From Ascidiella aspersa (lineage: Eukaryota): 64,000 nt of DNA. The DNA is taken from NCBI GenBank assembly GCA_963924565.1, contig OZ004607.1, positions 24,862,001 to 24,926,000 on the forward strand. The letters are read 5' to 3'. Position 1 is the stretch's first letter. Every line of letters begins with the position of its first letter. Position numbers and translations under genes: made by a program. The notes beneath the pieces are model-generated. The model had not been told where the DNA came from and did not search any database. It worked only from the letters and a program-made list of their open reading frames with translations. This document shows, in pieces, positions 4,438 through 50,959 of this stretch.

Positions 4438-5311
4438 TAACAATACAATAATTAAGCAACATAATACTGATGTCTTTTTTAATGCAATTGTACTAGGGTT
4501 GTATAGAATATAAAAGTACTGAAGAACACTGGGTTTGAAATTTCCAAAAAGAAATCCAGAATATTAAATCTAAATTATTTTTTGTTCATTTAATCATAAA
4601 TCCATGACGAACGTTTAATTACAGTGTAATAATTTTTTAGGCAAACTGTAATTAAATGCAAAACAATTTTGTAGAAAGATTGCAGCAAATTTAAAACAAT
4701 AGCTTTCAAAGGGTTTGTAATTTACCTGGTAACAATGTAATCTACCTTATAAAACATTCAATGTACTACAAAAGTGACACTAAAGTTGCTAGACAACTAA
4801 CAAATGAATTTATAATAATAAACATGTTTTCGATTAATTAAAAAAAAAACTGCTTATACCTTCAAATACACTCATTTGTAAAATACATAAAATATTAGTA
4901 CAAGTTCTTACATTTTTATATGATTATACATATAAATGTATATAGCATTAGTAAAATTTCAGATAACTATTCACTTGTTATTTAGTTACACAGAATGTGT
5001 AGGTATGAACCACATATAACAAAATTGGTACAGTATGCAAACCAAATCTTACGAAAGTTTGGGAAAATTTTTTTGGTGGAATATCTTGACATTTTGATAG
5101 TGCTTTAATTCCTGATTTTACCTTTCTGATACATTTGATAATCTAGAACAAGTATATATATATATATATTGACAATTATTTGTTCAATATGTATATTTTA
5201 TTTGGACTGTAATTTTACATTAATATTAATTTAACTTTATTTTAGATATCTACTGATATATATTTTTAATATTTATACTAATTATTGGCCGGTACGTCCA
5301 ACCTTTAAATT

Positions 5312-6292
5312 ATGCCAGAAGACGATACAAAACTGTTTGTTGGGGGCTTGTCATGGGCCACAACTGAAGAAAAAATGAAAAATTACTTCAGTCAATTTGG
5401 AACAGTCACTGAAACCAAGGTTATGAAAGATAAAGTTACGGAGCACTCTCGTGGCTTTGGGTTTGTAACCTTTTCTGATGCAAGTGGTGTTGCAGCTGTC
5501 CTTAAATCAAGACCTCATGTTCTGGATGACAAAACTATTGACCCGAAGCATTGCACACCTATGGAGGTGCAAAAAAAGAAGAAAGAAGAAGAAAAAATGC
5601 ATGTGAGAACCCATAAAATTTTTATTGGCGGACTTCCCAGGGATATTTCAGAAGCAGAAGTAAGAAAGTATTTTGTTAAGTTTGGTGAAGTGTCAGAAGT
5701 TACATTTGCCCTGAGTAAGGATGACAATCTAAACAAAGGATTTGGATTTGTAACCTTCTCTGAAGAATCCTCTGCCGCCATGGCGGTCAACCAACACTAC
5801 CATGAGATTTCAGGCAAAAGAGTTGAAGCCAAGAAAGCTGAACCAAGGGATACCAACCGTGTACCTAAACAACAGTCCCAACAACAACAGCCATATCAGC
5901 AGAATGATCAACAACAGTGGAACAACTATGGAGCTGGTGTACAGAACCAAAACAACCCTAACCAGGGTTATGGACAAATGAGTGGTTGGGGACAAGGTTA
6001 TGGTGCTATGGGCCCCTCAGGAGGTTATATGCCCAACAATAGTTACGGTTATGGGCAAATGTATTCTGGATATGGGAGTTATGGTTATGGCCAGCAATAC
6101 CCACAGCAAGGTGCACCCGTCCAAGGTGGATACCCAAACATGGGAACATATAACCAATATAACTCTTCCTATGGCCCTATGTACGGAGGCGATGCTTCAA
6201 AAGCGGCTGCTCCTGCTGCTGCTGCTGCTACTACTGGTAAAGATTCAAGCAATGGTGATAAATCTACTGGATATCATCCATACAAGAGATAA
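5312..6292 (+). CDS. DAZAP1: DAZAP1/Hrb27C (hrp48)-type hnRNP: two RRMs, Q/G/Y-rich low-complexity tail and C-terminal PY-NLS
   Basis: KLFVGGLSW and RGFGFVTF (RNP2/RNP1), SRPHVLDDKTIDPKHCTP, KIFIGGLP, KRVEAKKAEPRD and terminal YHPYKR closely match DAZAP1. Single 326-aa ORF; splice acceptor TTTTATTTTAG ends at 5245. Confidence 0.9.
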   Translation: MPEDDTKLFVGGLSWATTEEKMKNYFSQFGTVTETKVMKDKVTEHSRGFGFVTFSDASGVAAVLKSRPHVLDDKTIDPKHCTPMEVQKKKKEEEKMHVRTHKIFIGGLPRDISEAEVRKYFVKFGEVSEVTFALSKDDNLNKGFGFVTFSEESSAAMAVNQHYHEISGKRVEAKKAEPRDTNRVPKQQSQQQQPYQQNDQQQWNNYGAGVQNQNNPNQGYGQMSGWGQGYGAMGPSGGYMPNNSYGYGQMYSGYGSYGYGQQYPQQGAPVQGGYPNMGTYNQYNSSYGPMYGGDASKAAAPAAAAATTGKDSSNGDKSTGYHPYKR

Positions 6293-21500: not shown

Positions 21501-22615
21501 ATGGCAGAAATCATTTGAACACCCCTGATATAGAACCATCGAAAATTAGCCACAATAGTAATTTCTCACCTTTGTGATAATAACGGATACAGTATCTTAA
21601 ATTCAATACTCAATTTTCCGGACAACATAATCATTTAAACCTTTCAAATCCCGCAGGCAAAATAACAAAAACTGCATCGCCTTCAGTTTATTGATTTGCC
21701 TTTGCAGCTCTTCCGATTGCTTCACCCGACATTTGAAGGCACGAACGAACAGCAAATGACCGACCACGCTTCGACAGCAAACAAGAGGTTCGGCGTCCCT
21801 TCCGTTATCAAACGTTTTAGCGTTCCGTCAATAATAAAGCGATTCGGCGTTCCCTCGATCCTAAAGCGCTTTGGGGGCCCTTCCATTATCAAACGGCAGT
21901 TTCAACACTCTTCGATTTTTCGACCGCGTTTTTTTAATCCATCCATCATCAAACGCTACGACCAAAAGGTTGGCTGTTTTTTTGATGTTTAAAGTTATGA
22001 ACAAAGGTAGTTTATATTTCGATAATCTGAAGATCAATTATGTCTTCGGGTAACAAATGATCGATCGTTTGGGTTAAATGTTAACGAAACATATATTGTC
22101 GTTTTGTAAACTGTGTGGCAAGTTTGATGCTTTGAAATACCTAAAGTCCAACGTCAAGTAAATTGTAAACCAACTGTTAGAAAGCAAAACGCTTTGTAAT
22201 GGAAGAACAGAGGACGGGTTAATTAAATAGCGAGAAACTCATTGATTTTTGAAAATCAATTACAACCAATTAACATGTCTATTCCCCGTAACTTTTAGTA
22301 ACCTATATCTCTTAACGTAATAAATTTTGGCAAAAAATATTTGACGAATTTTGAGCAAAAATATACCTGTCCTAAATGATATATCACTATATTTTTTGGT
22401 TAGAGTAAGGTTATTTTACAATGATTGAAATCAACGAAGTCTAATCAAACTTGTGTAGTACTGGTATAGTGTTTTTTTAATAGTAGGTAGATAAACCTTT
22501 TTGAAAATTAGTCACACGTATGCGAACATATTTTAGTGTTTAAAAAAATTATACATTTCAGTCAGAAGAGGGTGATTCGCGGATGAACGATCAACCATAT
22601 CTCACCGATGAGTAG
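18550..22615 (+). CDS. Secreted neuropeptide precursor, neurotensin-like peptide (NTLP) type, 191 aa, 5 exons
   Basis: Exons 18550-18625, 18741-18778, 19028-19174, 21708-21968, 22562-22615 (GT-AG; phases 1,0,0,0; 576 nt total). Signal peptide MGQMLYLLSYLLVLHFVTVIVSS. KR-flanked FGVPSVI, FSVPSII, FGVPSIL, FGGPSII and QFQHSSIFRPRFFNPSII. AATAAA at 22880. Confidence 0.85.
20245..21065 (+). mobile_element. Degenerate hAT MITE related to 53988-54783, in precursor intron 3
   Basis: Shared blocks CACGATTACCGCAATGTTT, GTCAAAATCAGCTTGAT, GAGCACGAGCAACTTGTT and AAAGGGGGGCGCGG; termini eroded. Confidence 0.5.
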
Positions 22616-23562: not shown

Positions 23563-24872
23563 CTTTCCAGATGTCATTAAACAACTATTAGAATTGAATT
23601 TTCCAACCGTGTAAGTACCAGTTAGCACTTCGTTTTTCGATCACCTTGTTTCCTTGGTTGTTTAACAATGTCAAGTAAATACGCCATAATGTCCTCAAGT
23701 TATTTATTGTATTGTAGTAAAACCCTTTCTATACAAAACATTTAAGTCGAACAGCACGAACACTGAGGTTATACAAACAATGCTTGTTCTAATATTTGGG
23801 AATGGTGGATAGGAGTAGCGCTTGTTTTGCCAAAATAAGGTTGCTGTTAATTCACGTTGTCGCATTCACGTCCTTTCGTACGATGAAACGTAACTTTGTA
23901 AAACATGAAACATATTAAACTTGCTGCTTATTCACTTATTAAAAAGGCACGTCATTCGGGGTCATAACTAAATTCGTGTTTGGACTTGAACGAATTGAAT
24001 AATATGTTGCGCCGGTCGATAAGTCATTAAGCTTTTACTGAAGTATGTTATTTCACCTATAGTGTCTTGCCATCCTACCTATAACTGGACTCGTTGTGCG
24101 TAGGCTATTAATTAATCTTTTCCTAGCCTGAAAATCCTAAAAACATAATAATTGTATAAAATAATAAGGAAATTTAACACAAACATTATTTCCCGCACAA
24201 CAAAAGTAAACCGTAATTAACAACAGTTAAACGTGATGTTCTCAAACTATTGAGCTACAAGCACAAAAATAGGCTTTTTAAGAATTAATCGACAGATTTT
24301 GCGATCAACGTTTCAACTTGATTTTTTTTTAATTATTGTATATGATTAGCAAAATTCTATAGATTTAAAGGTTTAAAAAAATTTGTAGTCTATTCCTACA
24401 CGAAACGAATTTAGGCTAAATACCTCTCGATCGGCATTTCAGCTTATTTTTTGTATATTTTTAAAAGATATCCAAAAAAGTAGGCAGAATCAGTTATCGT
24501 GAAAACCACGTGCAACGGCGATAATTGTGTTTTCCGTAAATCCAATTGATGGGGTGTCTTCCATTGGCAACGCTTGATTTAGCTTTGAGTTGAACGTTGG
24601 CGTTCCGAACTCCAAGCGAATGCTTTGATGATTCTATAAACTGTCTCGTGACGTCATTTCCAAACCGATCGTTTCTCCAAAAGCTGGCGCCTTGCAGGGC
24701 CAAAACAACACCGCAATTCAAAAGAAAGTCTATTATGGACCAATTAGACGTCTGTTGACCAACCGGAGGTTTCGTTCTCGTAAGGTTGACGACAACGAGT
24801 GTTGGAATTGTAGTCGTAGCAGATGATACAAGGAAGTAGTAATTATGACAAATCTTAACCTTTTTTAAACAG

Positions 24873-25150
24873 TGTTGCACTGAATATGTTAAAAATGGAA
24901 ATCACCTTGACCCTTGCAAGATAAATGTCGACCATAATTCCTGATCAGTAACAGCAAAATAATCTAGCAAAGCTAGCAATTCAGGTCAGACACATTAACC
25001 AGATCTTAAAAGATATATATATATTTCGCCAACTAAGGCATCGTCAGTATATCTTAATTCATTCGAAGGTTGGCGAAATATATATATATCTTTTAAGATC
25101 TGGTTAATGTGTCTGACCTGAATTGCTAGCTTTGCTAGATTATTTTGCTG
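24873..25150 (-). mobile_element. Penelope-like element (pLTR) remnant with a perfect 82-bp inverted repeat
   Basis: Arms 24952-25033 and 25069-25150 with a 35-nt loop; 14-bp TSD CCTTTTTTAAACAG at 24859-24872 and 25151-25164; contains a minimal hammerhead. Confidence 0.7.
25010..25055 (-). ncRNA. Minimal type I hammerhead ribozyme
   Basis: Minus strand reads AAGAUAUA-CUGACGA-U-GCC(UUAGUU)GGC-GAA-AUAUAU-A^UAUAUCUU: 8-bp stem I, intact core, 3-bp stem II, palindromic loopless stem III. Confidence 0.75.
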
Positions 25151-25359
25151 CCTTTTTTAAACAGGTTTGAGACAATTGCCGAAATAACTCGTTGAAAGTA
25201 CTGCGAAAATAACCAAAAGGATAAATCGCACAACAGATGATCTTCAATTCTTCTTCCCCCCTATATGGTATTCCACATAAACGTGGTTTAATCCTTTATT
25301 TACGCCTAACAGTAGCGCAAAAATTTAATGATTGAACTCTGGTGTTCGAGAAACGCTTT

Positions 25360-27189
25360 AGGGTTAGTAGCCAATGTCGCATATACGGGCGTTTATGTCG
25401 CATATACGGGCGACTGTAGGTCGCATATACGGGCGAAGATGTCGCATATACGGGCGACTGTAGGTCGCATATACGGGCGTTCGCATATACGGGCGAAGTT
25501 CTCTGCCAAAAGTACTGTGTGGTGTAAGGCGTCGGAATGGCGTTCTATCAGACTTTAGTTGGCCATTATGAAGTGTTTGTGTTGCCCGACAGTTATGACG
25601 TCATACCATGTCTTTATGTGGTTTTAATAATCTACATACTGCATGTGAGTATACTATTATTATTGCAATATCGTTGCCTTCTTTTAAGGAATCCGCGGTA
25701 TTTCACGTTTTACAGTATTTTTTTATGAGCCTAATTGATTTCTTTAAATGAAAGATTATACGATTTCGCTGCCAAATTTTTGATTAGCTTGCTCTATATG
25801 GAAATTCACCACGGAAACACAGCCATATTTTATGACGGTCATCTAACCGACAGGATATTAAGCAAATTGGTAAACACATTACCGAAACAGTAATCGAATG
25901 TATGATGTAACAAAATAACCTTATATAAACCGTTTTCTTATTTCATAGTATTTATCCAATACCGCACAAATGTATTTTGGGTGTGTTAATTGGCAGCTGA
26001 TATATCTTTTAGCAAGAATCGCTAGGAGTGTCAGCATAACAAAACATCTATCCACGACCCCGTACATCCGATGTGCAACAGGGGGCTCAAAACTACTAAG
26101 GAGTCTGTGCTGCCCAAAATCAGCCCAAAACAATTGAACAGAAAGGCTATATCAATGCATTGCTGTTTGCCTTCAGGATAGTGAATCAAAATCCTACGGA
26201 ATTTTCGCCATGAATTGCACTTATGTTGCTTTCGACGGAAAACAACAAGCTACTTCTGCAATTGAAACGGCCATTCCGGTTGAATGACCAGATTGACATC
26301 AACTACTACGATTTCGGACGATGAATCAAACATTCCATGCCAACAGAATCAAACATTCCAAGCCAACATGTTAAATAAAATGCGTCTCTGGTCGTTGAAA
26401 CCTCGGTGGGATACGATGAGTAGACGCCCCGCTAAACTTCGCAGGAGGTCGCAGGCAATGGCAGCACTTGTCGACAGGTTTTCTGATATTTTCGGCGAAT
26501 CTCCGTGAGACGTTGACTTTATCAAGCACCGCATTATGCCGACGGATTTTTGGTTCTGTTTGGGGTGATTGTTTGGTAATGGGTGGGGTTAAAAAATAGG
26601 TTAGTGTTGAAATTATTAGGGGAGTTAGTGCAGCATCATGCGACTGCAACGTATATGCGACCTATAGTGGTTAACAAGTCAGCCGAATAAGGGTAATTTA
26701 CTACAGCACTTGATTAATGTAACGTCATGATGAAGACATGATATGACGTCATAACTGTCGGGCAACACAAACACTTCATAATGGCCAACTAAAATCTGAT
26801 AGAACGCCATTCCGACGCCTTACACCACACAGTACTTTTGGCAGAGAAATTCGCCAGTATATGCGACATTATGCGAACGCCCGTATATGCGACCTAGCCA
26901 AATATGAGCTATTTACTACAGCACTTGATGAGTGTGACGTCACGATGAAGACATGATATGACGTCATAACTGTCGGGCAACACAAACACTTTATAATGGC
27001 AAAGTAAAATCTAATAGAACGCCATTCCGACGCCTTACACCACACAGTACTTTTGGCAGAGAACTTCGCCCGTATATGCGACATTATGCGATCGCCCGTA
27101 TATGCGACATCTTCGTCCGTATATGCGACCTACAGTCGCCCGTATATGTGACATAAACGCCCGTATATGCGACATCGGCTGCCAACCCC
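25360..27189. mobile_element. Fold-back-type non-autonomous DNA transposon with long TIRs built from (G)TCGCATATACGGGC sub-repeats
   Basis: About 250-bp TIRs (25360-25615 vs 26945-27189), six motif copies on the left and five on the right, plus an internal duplicate of the right TIR at about 26695-26890. No clean TSD. Confidence 0.75.
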
Positions 27190-27782
27190 TCTCGAGAAAC
27201 GTCGGCGCGTTCTTGGTGAAACGCTTTTTGTTATGTAGAACAAGGACGGTGTAACTGTAGACAGTGCGTTAGATTCCATATGTAAATAAATAATAAATTT
27301 GCCACAGAACGAAACATTGTTAAAACAAAGACGTCATAGCACGGATGTGTATATGGAGGCAGTTTGTCTTGCTGTTTCAAATCTTCCACTACATCATCAT
27401 GTTGTACGGTACATAAATCGTTTGGAGTTCGGAGCTGTTTTGATAAAATTAACTAAAAACTAATGTATAAATATCCGGTGTAGTTGGGTTCGACCACAAT
27501 CTCTTTGGTCAGACTCACTGCACACAAATCTCAGCATTTAAAAAGGAATTGTGTGGTAAACCGATTTATTTTAAATGAAATATGTTCGCGGCATATTTAG
27601 TCAGGCATGACTCTTTTTTCTATTTTCAAGCCATAGAATATTAAATACTAAACGACATTGGATCTCAGTGACGACTTCAGTCTTCAATGTCGTAGAGTAA
27701 CTGCAACTACATCACCGTTCGGTAGATATGACTTTGTACACTCGTTTTCATTTATCAACTGTAGTACCTTGTCAAAATCTTA

Positions 27783-28265
27783 ATGGGTGGTTGGTTTTCA
27801 TCACAAACACATGCTTGTGTGTTTTGTGACATTTTAAGCTCATTAAATGATGGACCTGCTAATGATATTGCATTGCAGCCTATGTCAGACAAGATATTGA
27901 AGTTCAACGAAAACTTAGCTGTTTTGAAAGATAAAAGACCAGCCGCAACCCATCACTATCTTGTAGTACCTCGAAGTCATATTTCAAATCCGAAAACGTT
28001 ACACAACTTACAGCATGCCAAGTTAATTGAGGATATGCATCAGTTTGGAAAATCCTACATTGAAGAAAACGTTCAAGTCGATCCTAGCAAAGAAGTTCGT
28101 TACGGCTTTCACTGGCCACCTTTGATTAGTGTGGACCACTTGCATATGCATATTATATATCCCTGTTCTGAATGTAACTTCCTAAACTCCCAGTTGTTTA
28201 AACATAACTCTTCATTTTTTCTCAGTCCTGAAAGGCTAATCAACATTATAAAACTTAAGTCTTAA
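27783..28265 (+). CDS. HINT3: HINT3-like histidine triad nucleotide-binding protein, paralog A
   Basis: CVFCDI, KDKRPAATHHYLVVPRSHI and YGFHWPPLISVDHLHMHII (HIT motif HxHxH); single exon, 160 aa. Confidence 0.85.
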   Translation: MGGWFSSQTHACVFCDILSSLNDGPANDIALQPMSDKILKFNENLAVLKDKRPAATHHYLVVPRSHISNPKTLHNLQHAKLIEDMHQFGKSYIEENVQVDPSKEVRYGFHWPPLISVDHLHMHIIYPCSECNFLNSQLFKHNSSFFLSPERLINIIKLKS

Positions 28266-28623
28266 ACTTAAATTGTAATCTGTTTCATGCAACTATTTTT
28301 AAATGTTGTAAAAATATCCATTTTTATATGTGTGTTTATATATTCGTTGCAAATTTTATACCTGTTTAGATGCATTTTAAAAATTAATATATTAGTTTGT
28401 CTAACAAGATTCACAGCATGCCAGCAATAGTATGTTCTAAGGAGTTAGCCTTAATTGTGAAAGTTATGAGGCCATTTAATGATAGGTGATCTTAACTGTT
28501 CTGATTAACCTTGAAGTTCAACAATGTGTTTGTGTTTACCTTAAATATAAATCTATTTTCTTAATATATATCACTTTTAAAATGTTTTAGATCTGTGATA
28601 AAAGTAAAAAATTAATTGCTGAC

Positions 28624-29085
28624 ATGGCTGAATTTACACAAAAACTATCAACTGCTTGTTTGTTTTGTCAAATTTCTTCTGGAATCAATGAAAATCGGTG
28701 TCAGAATGTGTTGACTTTCAATGAAACAATGTATGTGATCAAAGACCTTAAACCTGCTTCCACCCACCACTACCTCACTATACCTCGCAGCCATGTCACT
28801 AATCCCCAAACTCTTTGCAAACATTCCGATATTACATTAATACAGAAAATGGTGAAGTTTGCAAAAGAATATTTAAAATCTGTTGAACCCCAGTACAGTG
28901 ACAATGATGCTAGAATTGGCTTTCATATCCCTCCTTACACAAGTCAAGAGCATTTGCACCTCCATATTATATGGCCAGCTTCTCTAATACATAGCAGAAA
29001 ATATCAAGAAGGTTATTGGTACTTTGTAGACCCACAAACTGTTACTGAAATGGTAACAAAAAAAATAAAAAAGGAACAGGGATGA
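28624..29085 (+). CDS. HINT3: HINT3-like histidine triad protein, paralog B
   Basis: CLFCQI, KDLKPASTHHYLTIPRSHV and IGFHIPPYTSQEHLHLHII; single exon, 153 aa; acceptor-like GTTTTAG at 28590. Confidence 0.85.
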   Translation: MAEFTQKLSTACLFCQISSGINENRCQNVLTFNETMYVIKDLKPASTHHYLTIPRSHVTNPQTLCKHSDITLIQKMVKFAKEYLKSVEPQYSDNDARIGFHIPPYTSQEHLHLHIIWPASLIHSRKYQEGYWYFVDPQTVTEMVTKKIKKEQG

Positions 29086-29356
29086 TAGTGTTTTTTAGTT
29101 TATATCCCATTGGGTGCCGCAGTTTATGTAAATCAATGTATACAAGTGTATATCTTTTAAATGTCCTGTGATGTATTGTTGATTTGAAGATATTATAATC
29201 ATTCTTCTATTGTCAAATTTTATTTTTGTGTATTTTATTGATTGAACCATCTATATTTTAACAGAAGGATCAGTTATATGGATAATAGTACTCTCTAAAC
29301 TAACTCTGGAAGTTTTAGTACTCTTTCTCTGTATAGACAATATAATCTAAGGCTGA

Positions 29357-31813
29357 ATGGCAGCCACTGAACCATACAGAACATTGCCAAAAAAGGAGTT
29401 TGACTCTTCATCAGAGGAGGGCCAAATTACTGATGATGACTCCAGTGATGAATGCTCTGGTAAACGCATGAAGATATCAGAAAGCAGTACAACATCTTCT
29501 TTACTTTCAAACCAAAATGCAACTGGCACAAGTGGTGCAAGAATGCAGCCAAATATTCGACCTAAGCGCAGAAACAACATATGGGGATCAGTACTAGCAG
29601 ACCAGTCATCAAATGAAATATCGCATTCTTTTGGAACAGTTGGAATGAAACATTTTATGTCAAGGTTATTATTTGTTTATTGGGATGTAAAAACATAATG
29701 CTAGCATTCAAGGAAGCTTTAGTTTTTATAAAAATTGACATGTTCCAGGGGTCCTGAATCATTTTCATTGGAAATAGCACACAAAGATCGAAGAATGGAA
29801 GACCCGGCTTACAGCTCTTCTTCAGATGATGACGAACTGGTAATTTTTTGACAAATTGAACAATGCAATAGTGTAACAGTGTTTCTCTGTAATTTTTTTT
29901 TGGCTCTGATAATATTTATATAATTTCATGCCAAGATTTTCTTTTGTGTTAGAAGGCTTATTACTGTCTAATTTTTTTATTTTTTTTTACATTGAACTTT
30001 TAAGTTAAAAAATGCGAAAATGGAGTTTCACCCTTTTTTGTTATTTTGTGAATTTGTTTAGATTAGAATTTTGTAAAATTAAAACTGGAATATATTATTA
30101 AGATCAGCTATACAATAACGACTCTGTATTATAGAAAATCTGTATTGTCAAACTGATTGTGGTACTAATGCTACTTTACGATCCAATGTTTAAAAATCTA
30201 GGTTTTATACTTAGATCATTTTTGCTAAAATCGTTTGCAACTCAATATTGTCAGCATAAATACTACAGTGCTCCAAACAAATTACCAACAAATACTAAAT
30301 CGTGTAATGATGAAACACTGTTTTGAAGGAAAAGGAAAAAGAGCCAACAATTGAAGAGGAAATGGAAAACTACATGATTGCTAGACAACATTTGAACAAT
30401 CAATTTAACGAAAAAATACAACCTAAAAAACAGAACCTTAAACGAAAACGACCTAAAAACCGAAAACCTGGACAGGTGCCAAAGTACCAACCCGGACAAA
30501 AGGTCACTTTAAATAAGAAGGTTAATGTTAGTCCAGCTGACGCTGAAGATATTGTAGCTGAAGAAATAGCATTCAGGTTGAAACATTTATGTTTATTTTT
30601 GCCGTAAAATAAATTTAACTTTTATTATTTTTGCTTTATAATAGGTTATGGGAAAAGAAAAAGGAACTCATTAAAACTATTGTTTCAGTCATTGGAAATG
30701 AAAAAGCTTTATTCCTGTTTGGAAAAACAGAAGCCCTTGAATTAGGTGGTGGTGTCATGACAATGAAGGTAGGATTTTGGCAAAGCGAAATATTTACTTT
30801 TATTAGAATTCACATTCTATTTTTATAATCTAATTTTGCTTAGGGTGACAGAAGAAGAACACCTGGAGGTACATTTCTCTTTCTCCTTAGAAAAGATCCA
30901 GACGTAGACCAAGATATGATAAATGTAAACTTATAATTATTGCTAATTTATTTAGGTGACTGTTTTAAATTAAAACTGGCTTCTTTTAGGTGATAAATAT
31001 GGACCTTTTAAGCAGTTTTTTTTTTAAATTTAGTCAAAACCCATGTGGGGCGTAAAGGTTTAATAGCAGGAGCAGAGATGAAACACTCACTGATCCAAAA
31101 ACTTTTTTCAAGTTGCAAATATAAGTTTTGTGATAATAATCTTGAAAATATATATTTCTAGAATGGCTATGAATGTGCAACCCTAGAAGTTTAAGAAACA
31201 CCGCTTTAAATCATAATGGCTGCAGGTTGTAGTACCTACTTACGTATGGGCTTATGTAGAGGTTTAGATAATTGCTTTGTTTACTTTTAGTTAGCTGTTT
31301 GGCAATAGAAAGTTTATTTAAATTCTATAAATTTGCCCAACTTACCAGTCCATTAGTCTATGTTTACAATCAAATGATTTTCTTAGAATGTAACTATTTT
31401 TGTTATAATGAAAATTGAACCTGTGACTATTTGTGGATAATCTTTTATTTACCAATGAGCTATTAAGTATATTTTTTAAAACAGACTTGCTCAAATGCCC
31501 ACGCTGTATCTATTACACAAACCAAAGCGTTAATTTTCTACTTTTGTGATAACAGAAAATCTTTGAAGCTGAGTCGCTACGCGAAAAAGAACGCTGGCTT
31601 GCTTCAAAACAGGCCATAAAACAACAGCGCGAAGCTTTGAACGTTGGCGAAACGCCGCAAAATAGTCCATCCACCTCCAACGTCAACTCAATAGCGACCG
31701 CTAGCGGTTCTAATCTTGTCGTACAATCACCGCACTGTGCGGATTTAACTGAAGAGACACGACTGAGCGATGTCGAGGAAAACAGCTGCGAGGCTGCTGA
31801 AATGTTTCCTTGA
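29357..31813 (+). CDS. PHAX: Phosphorylated adaptor for RNA export, 6 exons
   Basis: Exons 29357-29664, 29749-29839, 30329-30576, 30645-30768, 30844-30924, 31556-31813. Motifs RRNNIWGSVL and the RNA-binding domain IAFRLWEKKKELIKTIVSVIGNEKA...TEALELGGGVMTMKGDRRRTPGGTFLFLL. Confidence 0.9.
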
Positions 31814-46950: not shown

Positions 46951-49900
46951 TCACGTTCGGTAACGAGCAGGCACAGTAATAACACGACCACGTCGAGTTA
47001 ACCTCGGTCGAATGGGAAAAGAGGGTTGCGGTGGTATGCATGGAATATCGGGACGTTGCGGTAAACATTGGGTAAAAGTGGGGCGAGTATTTTCCATGTT
47101 TAATAAATCATTATCAGTGTAAGCCGGTTTAAGTCGGTCAATCGAAACAGTATCTACACGGCCATTAGCATTAATTTTGAAAAATTTACTGTTTCTTTCT
47201 ATAACGTTAAACGGGCCGTCGTAAGGACACTGTAAGGGTGATCTATGACAGTCACGACGCACGAAAACAAATTTACACGTTTGAAGTATACGCGGTACAC
47301 TACTATGCGATTGTCAGTGTCGTGATGTCGCAATGGCGCGAACGTTCTCCATTGATTTAGACAGGAATGTTGTTACCTCCGCTGTGGTTGTAGTGGTGCC
47401 GTGTGACGGTGGTGAGAAAAACTCCCCTGGTAACCGCAGTGTCGTGCCGTACACCAGCTCTGCGGCAGAACAACCGATGTCTTCCTTCGGGGCCGTGCGA
47501 ATGCCGAGCATGACTGCAGGAAGTTGGTCCACCCATAGTGGTTGTTGTCCAATCGGGCTTTGAGTGCTGCTTTGTTTGCCGGTGGAGTCTTTCCACTATT
47601 CCATTGGATTGCGGGTGGTAAGCGGTGGTTCTTTGGCGATGGGAACCTAAGAGGGAGTTTAGGTTTGCCCATAGGTTAGACTCGAATTGACGGCCTCTGT
47701 CGGAAGTTATGGACTGTGGTGTACCGAAACGAGATACCCACGACAGCAAAGCCCTGGCACACGACTCTGACGTAGCATCCACCATCGGGATCGCCTCCGG
47801 CCACCTAGTGAAACGATCTATAGAAGTAAATATGTAAGAGTAACCCTGCGACATCGGAAGCGGTCCGACGATGTCCACATGAATTTCTGCAAACCTTTTG
47901 TCGGGAAGCGTAAATGAACCAAGCTGTGACAATGTATGGCGGTGAATTTTCGCCCGCTGGCATTGTAAACACGTGCGAGCCCACAGCCCAACATCTTTGT
48001 TTAAGCTATGCCAAATGAAACGATCGGAAACTAGTTTACGAGACGCGCGAATACCTGGATGTGAAAGGTTGTGTAGTACATCAAAGACAATGCGCCGAAA
48101 TGCTAGTGGCACAACGGGTCTGGGATAACCTTTGGAAACGTCGCATAAAATAGTATCGCTAGATCCAATGAGCGGAAGGTCCTGAAATTTAAGTGACGTT
48201 ACAGCTGTTCGGTATGCACGAATGTCACGATTACCTTTTTGTGCTCTAGCCAAAGCGGCAAAATCTATCGCAGGAGACATCGTTGAATTTATAGCAACGC
48301 GAGATAATGCATCTCCGGCAGAATTGTGAGTGCCCTTAATATGTCGAATATCCGTTGTAAACTCTGAAATGAAAGACAAGTGACGAACCTGGCGTGGAGA
48401 AAGTTCGTTGGAGTTTCTGTCGAACGCATGACTTAATGGCTTTTGGTCAGTGAGCACTGAAAATTGTCGTCCTTCTACAAAGTATCGAAAATGCCGAACG
48501 GCCAAATATACTGCGAGAAGTTCGCGGTCGAACGCACTGTACCTGGTTTCGGCGGGTTTTAGTTTTTTGGAAAAGAATGCAATCGGTTGCCACTTGCCAT
48601 CGAGGTATTGTTCGAGAGATGCGCCCACAGCAACTGCAGAAGCATCTGTTGTTATTCGTGTTGCCGCATCAGGTTTGGGATGTACCAGCATCGTTGCTTT
48701 GGCAAGTGCGTGTTTTGATGCTAGAAAAGCAGTTGTACAGTCGTTGTTCCATACGAAATCGTTGGTTTGCCCACCCAGGGCAAGGTGAAGTGGGTGGAGA
48801 ATTGTTGCTGCTCCTGGGATGAACCTATGGTAAAAGTTTAAAAGTCCCAAATACTCACGAAGGCCTTTCTTGGATGTCGGTTGCGGGAAATTCTTAACAG
48901 CTTCAACTCTTCCGGCAAGTGGCGCGATTCCTTCAGTTGAAATGCGGTGTCCTAGAAATTCAAGCTCCGAAGTACCGAACTCGCATTTGTCTGGATTCAC
49001 GACAATGCCGAATTTCGCAAGCCTTTGAAACAATTGACGCAAGTGCCGTCGGTGTGCACTTTTGGTCGGACTGAACACAAGAATGTCATCTAGATATACA
49101 AAGATAAAATCCAGCCCTCTACATACCTCATCCATGAAACGTTGAAATGTCTGGGCTGCATTGCACAACCCGAATGGCATACGTGTGTACTCAAAAAGGC
49201 CGAACGGCGTAATAATGGCGGTCTTTGGTACATCTTCTGCTGCTACTGGAATGTGGTGATAGGCACGGATGAGGTCTATTTTGCTAAAGATTTTCGCTTC
49301 GTTTAAGTTAGCAGATGAGTCCTGTATAAGAGGAATCGGATATCGATCAGGAATAGTTCGACTGTTTAGATTCCTATAATCGCCACATGGCCTCCATTTG
49401 CCGGACTTTTTGCAAACCATGTGCAAAGGCGAAGCCCATGTACTAGACGAACGGCGCACGATTCCTAAGTCTAGAAGGTTTTGGAATTCCGCTTTAGCGA
49501 TTTTCATCTTTTCAGGAGAGAGTCGACGTGCCTTTGTATGTACTGGGGGACCATTAGTTACGATGTGATGCTTAATATTGTGTTTCAAAGAAACGTCATT
49601 GTAAACCGCGCTTTGAATAGAAGGAAACTCTTTAAACAGTGTTCCAAATTCATTTGTGGCATGGGTTAATGCTACCAAACCAAAAGAAGATGAGTGGGAA
49701 ACACCAGCGGAAACACAGTTAAATGTTTTAGCATCAATAAGTCGATTTTTACCAAGGTCGATTAGTATTCCGTTATGTCGAAAAAAATCTGCGCCGAGAA
49801 TCGGTTGCGTGACTTCGGCTATAATAAAAGACCATACATACTTTTTGCTGAGCCCGATGTCTAGGTTGATCGACCGCGTACCAAATGTTGCGATGGTGCT

Positions 49901-50092
49901 TCCGTTTGCTGCAACGAGTTCCAGCTTTCTTTTACAACTGTTGCGATCCATTCTTGTGGCAGGAACAACACTAATCGCAGCACCGGAGTCCACGAGGTAC
50001 CTTTGTCCAGTGGTGCGGTCATTAACGTGAAGAAGGCGGCGAGAACAACCAGCGGCACTAGCCGCCATTAGTGGCTGGTTGAGGCGTTTCCC
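46951..50092 (-). pseudogene. Gypsy pol (protease, RT, RNase H, integrase); open through the integrase core, with frameshifts near 47570 and 47315
   Basis: [29 protein letters not shown]...RELLA, HX4H...CX2[23 protein letters not shown]; C-terminal integrase pieces lie in other frames (47314-47532, 46951-47262). Confidence 0.9.
50035..50092 (-). promoter_or_regulatory. Programmed -1 ribosomal frameshift signal (slippery heptamer plus pseudoknot)
   Basis: G_GGA_AAC at 50092-50086 in the gag frame, pol in the -1 frame, followed by a stem-loop whose loop GGCGGC complements downstream GCCGCC. Confidence 0.7.
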
Positions 50093-50716
50093 TTGTACTC
50101 GCAGGGAGAAACGCACTTTTGTGCTTTAGGACCGAATCGCCTGTGGTACCAGCACAGTCGAGCGTCGTGCAGGTTTCTTGTTTGCGGCGTATTGCGCTTC
50201 AGAATTGCAATTTCTTTTTGCAGTTGATTGACTTGGGCCAAAATGGGTGACGTGTCCATCAGGTCAATCATGTTGTCGGCTTTCTGCGCCAAAGCTGATA
50301 ATTCCAGATCAAGTGTGGCCAAAACTACTCGCAAATTGCCTGGTAATCGTTGAAGAAAAAGTTCGCGAAGCAAATTTTTCGAATCTTCTTCGCCCATAAG
50401 ATGTTGCATTTACATTTCTGAAGGCTTGTGATCGCCGAGGTCTTCATGTCGAAGAAGTTTCTGTAAGCGTTGGTGCTTGGTCATCGAAACCCTGCGGATG
50501 AGTGCACATTTTAACTGCGCGTAAGGATCCGCGTCATCTGGGTTTTTTATAATGTCCCGCACAACGGCGGCGATTTCGGGTGACACTGCTGCTACCACAT
50601 GATGGTACTTTGTTTTCGATAGTGTCACGCCTTTCACACTGAATTGTGCTTCTACTTGTAAAAACCATAGTTCGGCGTCTTGTGGCCAGAATGGCGGAAT
50701 TTTAACAGCAACGGCT
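50068..50716 (-). pseudogene. Gypsy gag, start deleted and interrupted by a stop at about 50410
   Basis: AVAVKIPPFWPQDAELWFLQVEAQF...LGDHKPSEM*...LFLQRLP...[18 protein letters not shown]. Confidence 0.85.
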
Positions 50717-50959
50717 AAAAGAGCACGATAGAAAGACGTGTCGCGTGTAGCATGTCGCGTAACACATATAATAAAAGGATACGCTACACTATAAACAAAT
50801 TTAATAGTTTAAGGTTCATTTTTATAAGGAAGTCGAACTGGAACTTTATGAACCGGTTTTGGGTCATTTTTTTCCTAACCTTAACCGTTTTTAGCAAGAT
50901 TTTAAGGAGTCGAGCCAGAACGAAACCGAATAATTTGAAAGAACATGAATACCTTAACC

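Follow-up and report, generated by a model that had tools for sequence, protein, structure and literature searches.

A 278-bp insertion within 24859..25164 of the analysed DNA, a 64,000-nt stretch of the Ascidiella aspersa genome referred to here as the window, is best explained, with a probability of about 0.8, as a short and probably dead-end copy of the leading part of an RNA of a Penelope-like element (PLE), an RNA that was likely trans-spliced within stem I of its own hammerhead ribozyme and likely reverse transcribed from two priming events. Taken alone, the window insertion is an ordinary dead copy and a typical PLE product, in which the evidence for a spliced leader (SL) amounts to 8 + 11 nt with one arm carrying a deletion. 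The original prediction described an intact hammerhead at the turn of a fold-back insertion; it missed the SL at the turn and the splice acceptor in stem I, which are the informative features.

The insertion and its Penelope-like parent

A direct repeat, CCTTTTTTAAACAG, at 24859-24872 and 25151-25164 flanks the insert, and the two arms (24952-25033 and 25069-25150) are 82 nt each, 100% complementary and separated by a 35-nt gap; the duplication, the insert length and the perfect arms are as originally predicted. In the following list exon +1 is the base immediately after the splice acceptor AG of the parent element.

24859..24872, + strand: left target-site duplication, 14 bp (family mode 13-14)
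24873..24951, - strand: PLE 'tail', exon +102 to +180, stopping at fixed end A
24873..25052, - strand: long arm, PLE exon +1 to +180, from sequence comparison
25010..25055, - strand: hammerhead of type I whose helix III is small and palindromic, predicted to cut at 25018/25017
25053..25060, - strand: nt 9-16, the last 8, of SL-B (a variant spliced leader), attached at the position of the acceptor
25057..25067, + strand: SL-B nt 1-11, heading the short arm, read from the sequence
25069..25150, + strand: short inverted arm, exon +20 to +101, stopping at fixed end B
25151..25164, + strand: right target-site duplication, 14 bp

The SL-B pieces on opposite strands overlap by 4 nt (25057-25060), likely the microhomology that joined two cDNAs. 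The short arm lacks SL nt 12-16 as well as exon +1 to +19, with a single G at 25068 in their place, and the first three bases of the hammerhead (AAG) derive from the leader. An assembly artefact was rejected because the same layout recurs at dozens of unlinked loci, each with its own duplication. A MITE or fold-back DNA transposon was also rejected, given the 79-nt tail outside the arms, the variable interior and the retroelement parent.

A search of the same genome with the insert returned at least 93 matches (40 scored of 1342 candidates), and longer copies, up to 3 kb, were reached by tracing the sequence upstream of the ribozyme. In one 5′-truncated copy, L064, a 660-aa open frame with reverse transcriptase (RT), a CGHCALC linker (CxxCxxC) and GIY-YIG ends ~260 nt ahead of the same hammerhead. 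Its Pfam matches (RVT_1, E 4e-4; GIY-YIG, E 3e-3) are both below the curated cut-offs; P0001, a relative 47% identical to this frame, passes the RVT_1 cut-off. The frame has 68 protein relatives, the best of which are 44-47% identical and labelled ascidian. In L041, a single rearranged copy, the tail leads into sequence coding for the N terminus, which aligns with residues 14-49 of P0001, and an in-frame ATG lies 37 nt beyond the tail, so that ribozyme and tail would serve both as 5′ UTR and as 3′ end, that is, as a pLTR. The parent start codon is thus placed 37 nt past end A of the tail at 24873..24951. Searches of the assembly for a full-length intact parent gave 4 and 13 matches, none complete. 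[quoted passage not shown] The linker in L064 conforms to the CX2-5CxxC pattern ahead of GIY-YIG that is given in PMC8557442 for the Neptune or Nematis clade, to which the element may belong. The insert is, on sequence comparison, a young copy of the 5′ end of this RT+GIY-YIG element, its long arm differing from an unspliced genomic copy (L022) at 1 of 180 nt. The expectation of a recent, PLE-derived insertion with a PLE-type hammerhead, further genomic copies and an RT/GIY-YIG parent is therefore borne out, albeit with no complete parent; the suggestion of a retrozyme-like or separate non-autonomous family is not, as the sequence is that of the 5′ end of the PLE.

Several other features lie elsewhere in the window. 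About 200 bp to the right of the insert, an element at 25365-27180 has inverted ends that are long and repeat internally in 21-23-nt units, with arms of 137 nt and a 215-nt duplication, and looks like a non-autonomous DNA transposon. Two intronless genes with HIT/DcpS_C domains and the start of a third lie ~300 bp apart on one strand at 27765-29700, each preceded by an AG acceptor, in an operon-like cluster. At 21666-21992 (+) there is a frame with repeated KRF-x-x-PS-(I/V)-(I/L)-KR units that resembles a neuropeptide precursor and has no Pfam match. A Gypsy-type LTR retrotransposon at 47357-50808 (-) carries, alongside gag-like frames, a pol frame of 921 aa for protease, RT, RNase H and integrase. 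The intronless two-RRM gene at 5309-6292 (+), with a Gly/Tyr/Gln-rich tail, is possibly a retrocopy and is one that we take to be hnRNP/Musashi-like.

Spliced leaders joined within the hammerhead

The minus strand of the insert contains a type I hammerhead with a palindromic helix III. Stem I is formed by 25055-25048 with 25017-25010, the core CUGACGA (25047-25041) is followed by one extra U and stem II (GCC/GGC), and GAA (25027-25025), the palindromic AUAUAU (25024-25019) and H17 (A25018) complete the motif; stems, core and the predicted cut at 25018/25017 are as originally described. The isolated motif is predicted to fold with both stem I and stem II, at z of -1.7 and -2.2 and of only -0.9 when more flank is included. 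The Rfam search, the kind of check originally proposed, returned no hammerhead match, its only matches being to miRNA hairpins, below the gathering scores, which are generic hairpin matches. A loose core pattern gave 10 matches in the window against 3.3 expected, weak evidence taken alone. With a modest fold and no Rfam match, support for the ribozyme comes from conservation across the family, the core and stems being intact in 78 of 113 family arms, as core conservation among copies would have it. Stem I also co-varies between families (ATATA/TATAT, GAA/TTC, AGA/TCT, ATA/TAT, AAA/TTT). A transcript of the full insert is predicted to form a perfect hairpin of -152.7 kcal/mol in which stems I and II have probability 0, in agreement with the earlier expectation that a long hairpin would compete with the ribozyme, and in the window copy the ribozyme would be a passenger.

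In long copies of the family, a branch-like CTGAC, a pyrimidine tract and CAG lie directly ahead of ATATA-CUGACGA, an arrangement that reads as a 3′ splice site inside stem I. In short copies, one of two 16-mers replaces all of the sequence upstream of the acceptor AG. Counted as arms rather than insertions, and by exact matches only, junctions with SL-B number 88, with SL-A 31 (119 SL arms), unspliced junctions 126 and controls 0. Within a sample of 50 SL loci (the first 30 plus the first 20, among them two insertions that each enter through both arms and a segment that occurs four times), 30 keep all 16 leader nt and conservation stops at -17; at positions -16 to -12, which the query did not include, agreement with the SL is seen in 23-30 of the 30 and in 16-19 of the 20 loci. 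The same sub-family variants occur on arms of all three kinds (SL-A, SL-B and unspliced), a pattern that speaks for repeated splicing and against a single SL-headed master. This also weighs against a short non-autonomous retrozyme- or SINE-like element that acquired an SL in a single event and multiplies together with it. The numerous short, near-identical copies would suit such an element, and non-LTR retrozymes have been proposed, in the account in 10.64898/2026.07.22.740005, to stem from PLE pLTRs; two different SLs are, however, joined at the same base, the join is repeated in five or more other families, and among the loci read there are no head-to-tail monomer arrays, the copies being single or head-to-head with target-site duplications. 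We regard this origin as very unlikely.

SL-A is the 16-nt Ciona SL as printed in PMC7986045 and PMC1488885. SL-B, carried by the window copy, is a variant 16-nt leader with its own tandem gene array. Searching the genome for leader plus GT gave 2659 matches against 1 in the control, 2301 of them SL-B and about 350 SL-A. There are tandem leader arrays with a 584-bp unit on C3 and a 429-bp unit on C7; the SL-B array, on C7 from 14.76 Mb (L129), outnumbers that of the Ciona-identical leader. In the units of both arrays nt 17 begins a GT donor, and a hairpin leads to a T-run rather than to the AGCUUUGG motif given for Ciona as the Sm-binding site. Leaders that originate from repeated genes with a 5′ splice donor and are joined exactly at a pyrimidine tract plus YAG have the hallmarks of spliced leaders, and from these features we take SL-A to be one and SL-B to be a putative one. 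The SL-B string was found in none of the papers covered by a literature search.

The arrays are also sites of other insertions. Non-LTR elements of ~7.2-7.7 kb with two ORFs, a zinc-knuckle ORF1 and an APE-RT ORF2 of 1170 and 1202 aa, interrupt the arrays (L129:886-8695 in the C7 array, L130 in the C3 array, and L131); they are inserted a few bases past the SL donor and resemble SL-gene-targeting retrotransposons. At L133-L139 the first ~40 nt of the SL-B gene occur alone, followed by an AT run, inside repeated C7 sequence.

The leader ends precisely at the donor (nt 16) with none of the 3′ part of the SL RNA, and in several families the PLE part starts exactly after the YAG, which makes it highly improbable, the least likely of the readings considered, that RT switched template onto SL RNA without splicing, as in snRNA-LINE chimeras, even though template jumps are real in this family (L088 and L176 have a piece from beyond the tail before the SL).

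In run X6, of which ~6% was sampled, with 409 reads placed, 11 reads have SL-B letters at the junction. Their loose part has a median length of 35 nt, longer than the leader, so that most of these reads probably represent read-through of SL copies in the genome; neither starts nor ends are listed as piling up among the sampled reads, most of which are only 90-95% identical to the reference. An extra G stands just before the complete leader in 19 of 48 cases (p ~4e-4 against an assumed background of 18%), which might reflect cap copying; no other conclusion is built on it.

The same join is found in other elements. The full SL-B lies 1-9 nt ahead of CTGANGA at 158 places, against 0 in controls, and twenty such loci, hand-picked for differing spacers, belong to at least five other hammerhead families. 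For four of those families there are unspliced copies with pyrimidines plus YAG at the same base (among the first 30 of 381 matches); the YAG was part of the query for these copies, its coincidence with the SL join was not. Two of the families have their own RT-EN frames, 42-60% identical to that of the window family. These other families, at loci L192-L241, have the same acceptor-in-stem-I layout. Separately, dispersed LINE-like copies headed by a complete leader occur at L096, L099, L122, L124, L125, L126, L127, L132 and L141, with a coiled-coil ORF1 followed by an endonuclease ORF; in L132, L099 and L141, two leaders or remnants stand in tandem, as repeated trans-splicing and retroposition would leave them.

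The position of the join bears on the ribozyme fold. The acceptor AG pairs within stem I; the leader restores this pairing and adds one pair, and in four families it is the leader AAG that adds one stem I base pair. When 60 nt of exon is included, stem I is predicted to pair at 0.39 in the unspliced form and at 0.99 in the spliced one; extending the exon to 100 nt gives medians of 0.0 for 30 unspliced arms, 0.33 for 16 SL-B arms and 0.87 for 12 SL-A arms, all of these being context-sensitive predictions. Selection for leader pairing is unsupported, as the U opposite the A of the leader is the start of a T-run and one family pairs better when unspliced.

Copy ends and the origin of the two arms

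Copies of the family stop at two fixed points, exon +101 (B) and +180 (A), with 13–14-bp duplications. Of 186 aligned segments, 162 end at B or A (69 at +98 to +111, B; 93 at +175 or beyond, A), and A/B pairings have a 13-14-bp duplication in 29 of 41 cases. The inner arm ends scatter between about +2 and +145, the majority short of +85, and do not cluster at the predicted ribozyme cut site. No ribozyme-cleavage footprint was found at copy ends: just 4 of 49 inner arm starts are in +29 to +42, where they fall in the AT run around the predicted cut site, and the end of an L025 arm at +34 is a single case. As the turning point varies among copies, the break inside the ribozyme is incidental; the original prediction had its position right, and that position has no particular significance. 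Extra pieces from just past the tail, ending near the ORF ATG, precede the leader or main arm in L088, L176, L022 and L041 and suggest RT template jumps.

Twenty-nine two-arm pairs span the acceptor. Twenty-three could be classified, and in every one the two arms have the same leader type (13 unspliced, 8 SL-B, 2 SL-A); six pairs are unclassed, three of the SL-B pairs rest on 6-8 nt, and the loci were chosen by these same queries. Mixed pairs would be common if the arms were independent draws from a pool of RNAs. In L067 the long arm (up to 3 kb) ends at B and the tail is present on the short arm only, and in 5 of the 50 SL loci there is a single SL-headed arm that ends at B alone. Eight independent insertions combine an SL-headed B arm with a shortened A arm. 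In six of them the B arm keeps all 16 SL nt, the A arm stops at +46 to +79, and the A arm alone holds the tail, so that neither arm could have been copied from the other. A B-ending arm that is long or leader-complete, together with a tail restricted to the shorter arm, favours twin priming on one sense RNA.

The route that we propose would begin with a read-through or tandem transcript whose unpaired acceptor is SL-spliced to give a capped RNA, with a 5′ UTR in which the hammerhead and both RT start sites would lie ahead of the ORF. GIY-YIG would then nick both target strands ~13 bp apart, and each 3′ end would prime RT, at +180 and at +101, with both cDNAs copying the same uncut sense RNA towards the leader. 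A short microhomology (4 SL nt in the window copy) would join the cDNAs head to head and so form the fold-back. The double nicking and priming step, itself inferred, matches in-vitro data on an Anolis PLE (PMC11167929). The copies indicate that the template RNA was most probably processed, of sense strand and with an intact ribozyme.

Concordance of the arms could also arise if a single cDNA folded back and copied itself, or if one arm later converted the other. Snap-back self-priming of one SL-spliced cDNA, or such conversion, predicts identical arms and concordant leaders, as found in the 23 classified pairs and, for a T-run variant, in 24 of 24 scored; self-priming is favoured for these structures in Arkhipova 2013 (PMC3846280), and junction fillers often carry the SL start in reverse-complement form, GAAT lying no more than 12 nt upstream in 13 of 48 cases against a background of 3.8%. 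Set against it are the long B-ending arm of L067 with the tail only on the short arm, the insertions with a complete SL on the B arm and an A arm that stops early, the single SL-headed arms that end at B alone, and the extension of both strands reported in vitro (PMC11167929). Together these leave a second arm made by self-priming or conversion improbable, if less so than the two readings weighed above.

Comparison with known systems and implications

The window family shares with canonical EN+ PLEs of the Neptune/Nematis type, as described in PMC8557442 and PMC3846280, a single RT-GIY-YIG ORF, a CX2-5CxxC-type linker and a pLTR hammerhead, as well as an inverted 5′-truncated copy at the 5′ end, an optional tail and a short target-site duplication; the tail is ~79 nt here, compared with 30-40 nt in those accounts. 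About half of the exact-match arms are leader-headed here, which indicates a processed sense RNA as template; the text of Arkhipova 2013 (PMC3846280) left open whether the template is sense or antisense. A parallel to the acceptor, in cis, is Penelope of D. virilis, for which PMC4209133 describes an intron 3′ end at the 5′ end of helix I, ribozymes that differ between spliced and unspliced forms, as here, and a small palindromic helix III with proposed dimer activity, again like that of the window family. The short Penelope intron is, however, cis-spliced, whereas the acceptor here takes a leader in trans, and PLEs are known, in the same account, for keeping the intron in genomic copies, whereas here the spliced form has been retroposed in bulk.

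For the Anolis Poseidon element PAc (Frangieh 2024, PMC11167929), both target strands are reported to be cut and extended, with reverse transcription starting at two internal sites on either side of the tail and drawing mainly on uncut RNA. The window family is similar in having two RT start points that flank the tail and an intact ribozyme in the template; in PAc the ribozyme and tail overlap the start of the ORF, whereas in the window family both are in the 5′ UTR. The PAc account, in its available text, makes no mention of splicing and leaves the inverted arm unexplained. In flatworms (PMC5832876, PMC12582326), mobile-element loci that bear leaders have likewise been suggested to be retroposed trans-spliced transcripts, a suggestion made in passing for LTR/LINE loci with misassembly not excluded and, in the text available, with no acceptor mapping, PLE or ribozyme. 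The Ciona SL described in PMC1488885 and PMC7986045 has the identical 16-nt leader, tandem SL RNA genes and use of unpaired acceptors; Ciona intestinalis is described there with a single SL, whereas here the SL-B array is the more numerous and SL-B the commoner leader on retrocopies. In the literature searched, no paper treats PLEs, trans-splicing and hammerheads jointly. Within that literature, SL-headed and probably trans-spliced PLE copies appear to be new, SL-bearing retroelement copies having already been suggested in flatworms (PMC5832876, PMC12582326).

It is conceivable, though doubtful, that ascidian PLEs use SL trans-splicing as a programmed step, in which an acceptor in stem I would bring both a cap and the switching on of the ribozyme fold, with a germline- or transposon-biased SL-B doing most of the work. 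In several families a ribozyme helix sits on the probable trans-splice junction, and the leader arrays suggest that an ascidian-type genome has a second spliced leader. The route to head-to-head inverted PLE insertions and the strand of the template are stated as open questions in PMC3846280 and PMC8557442. [quoted passage not shown] With it, the finding of two RT start sites in vitro becomes a testable model of twin priming.
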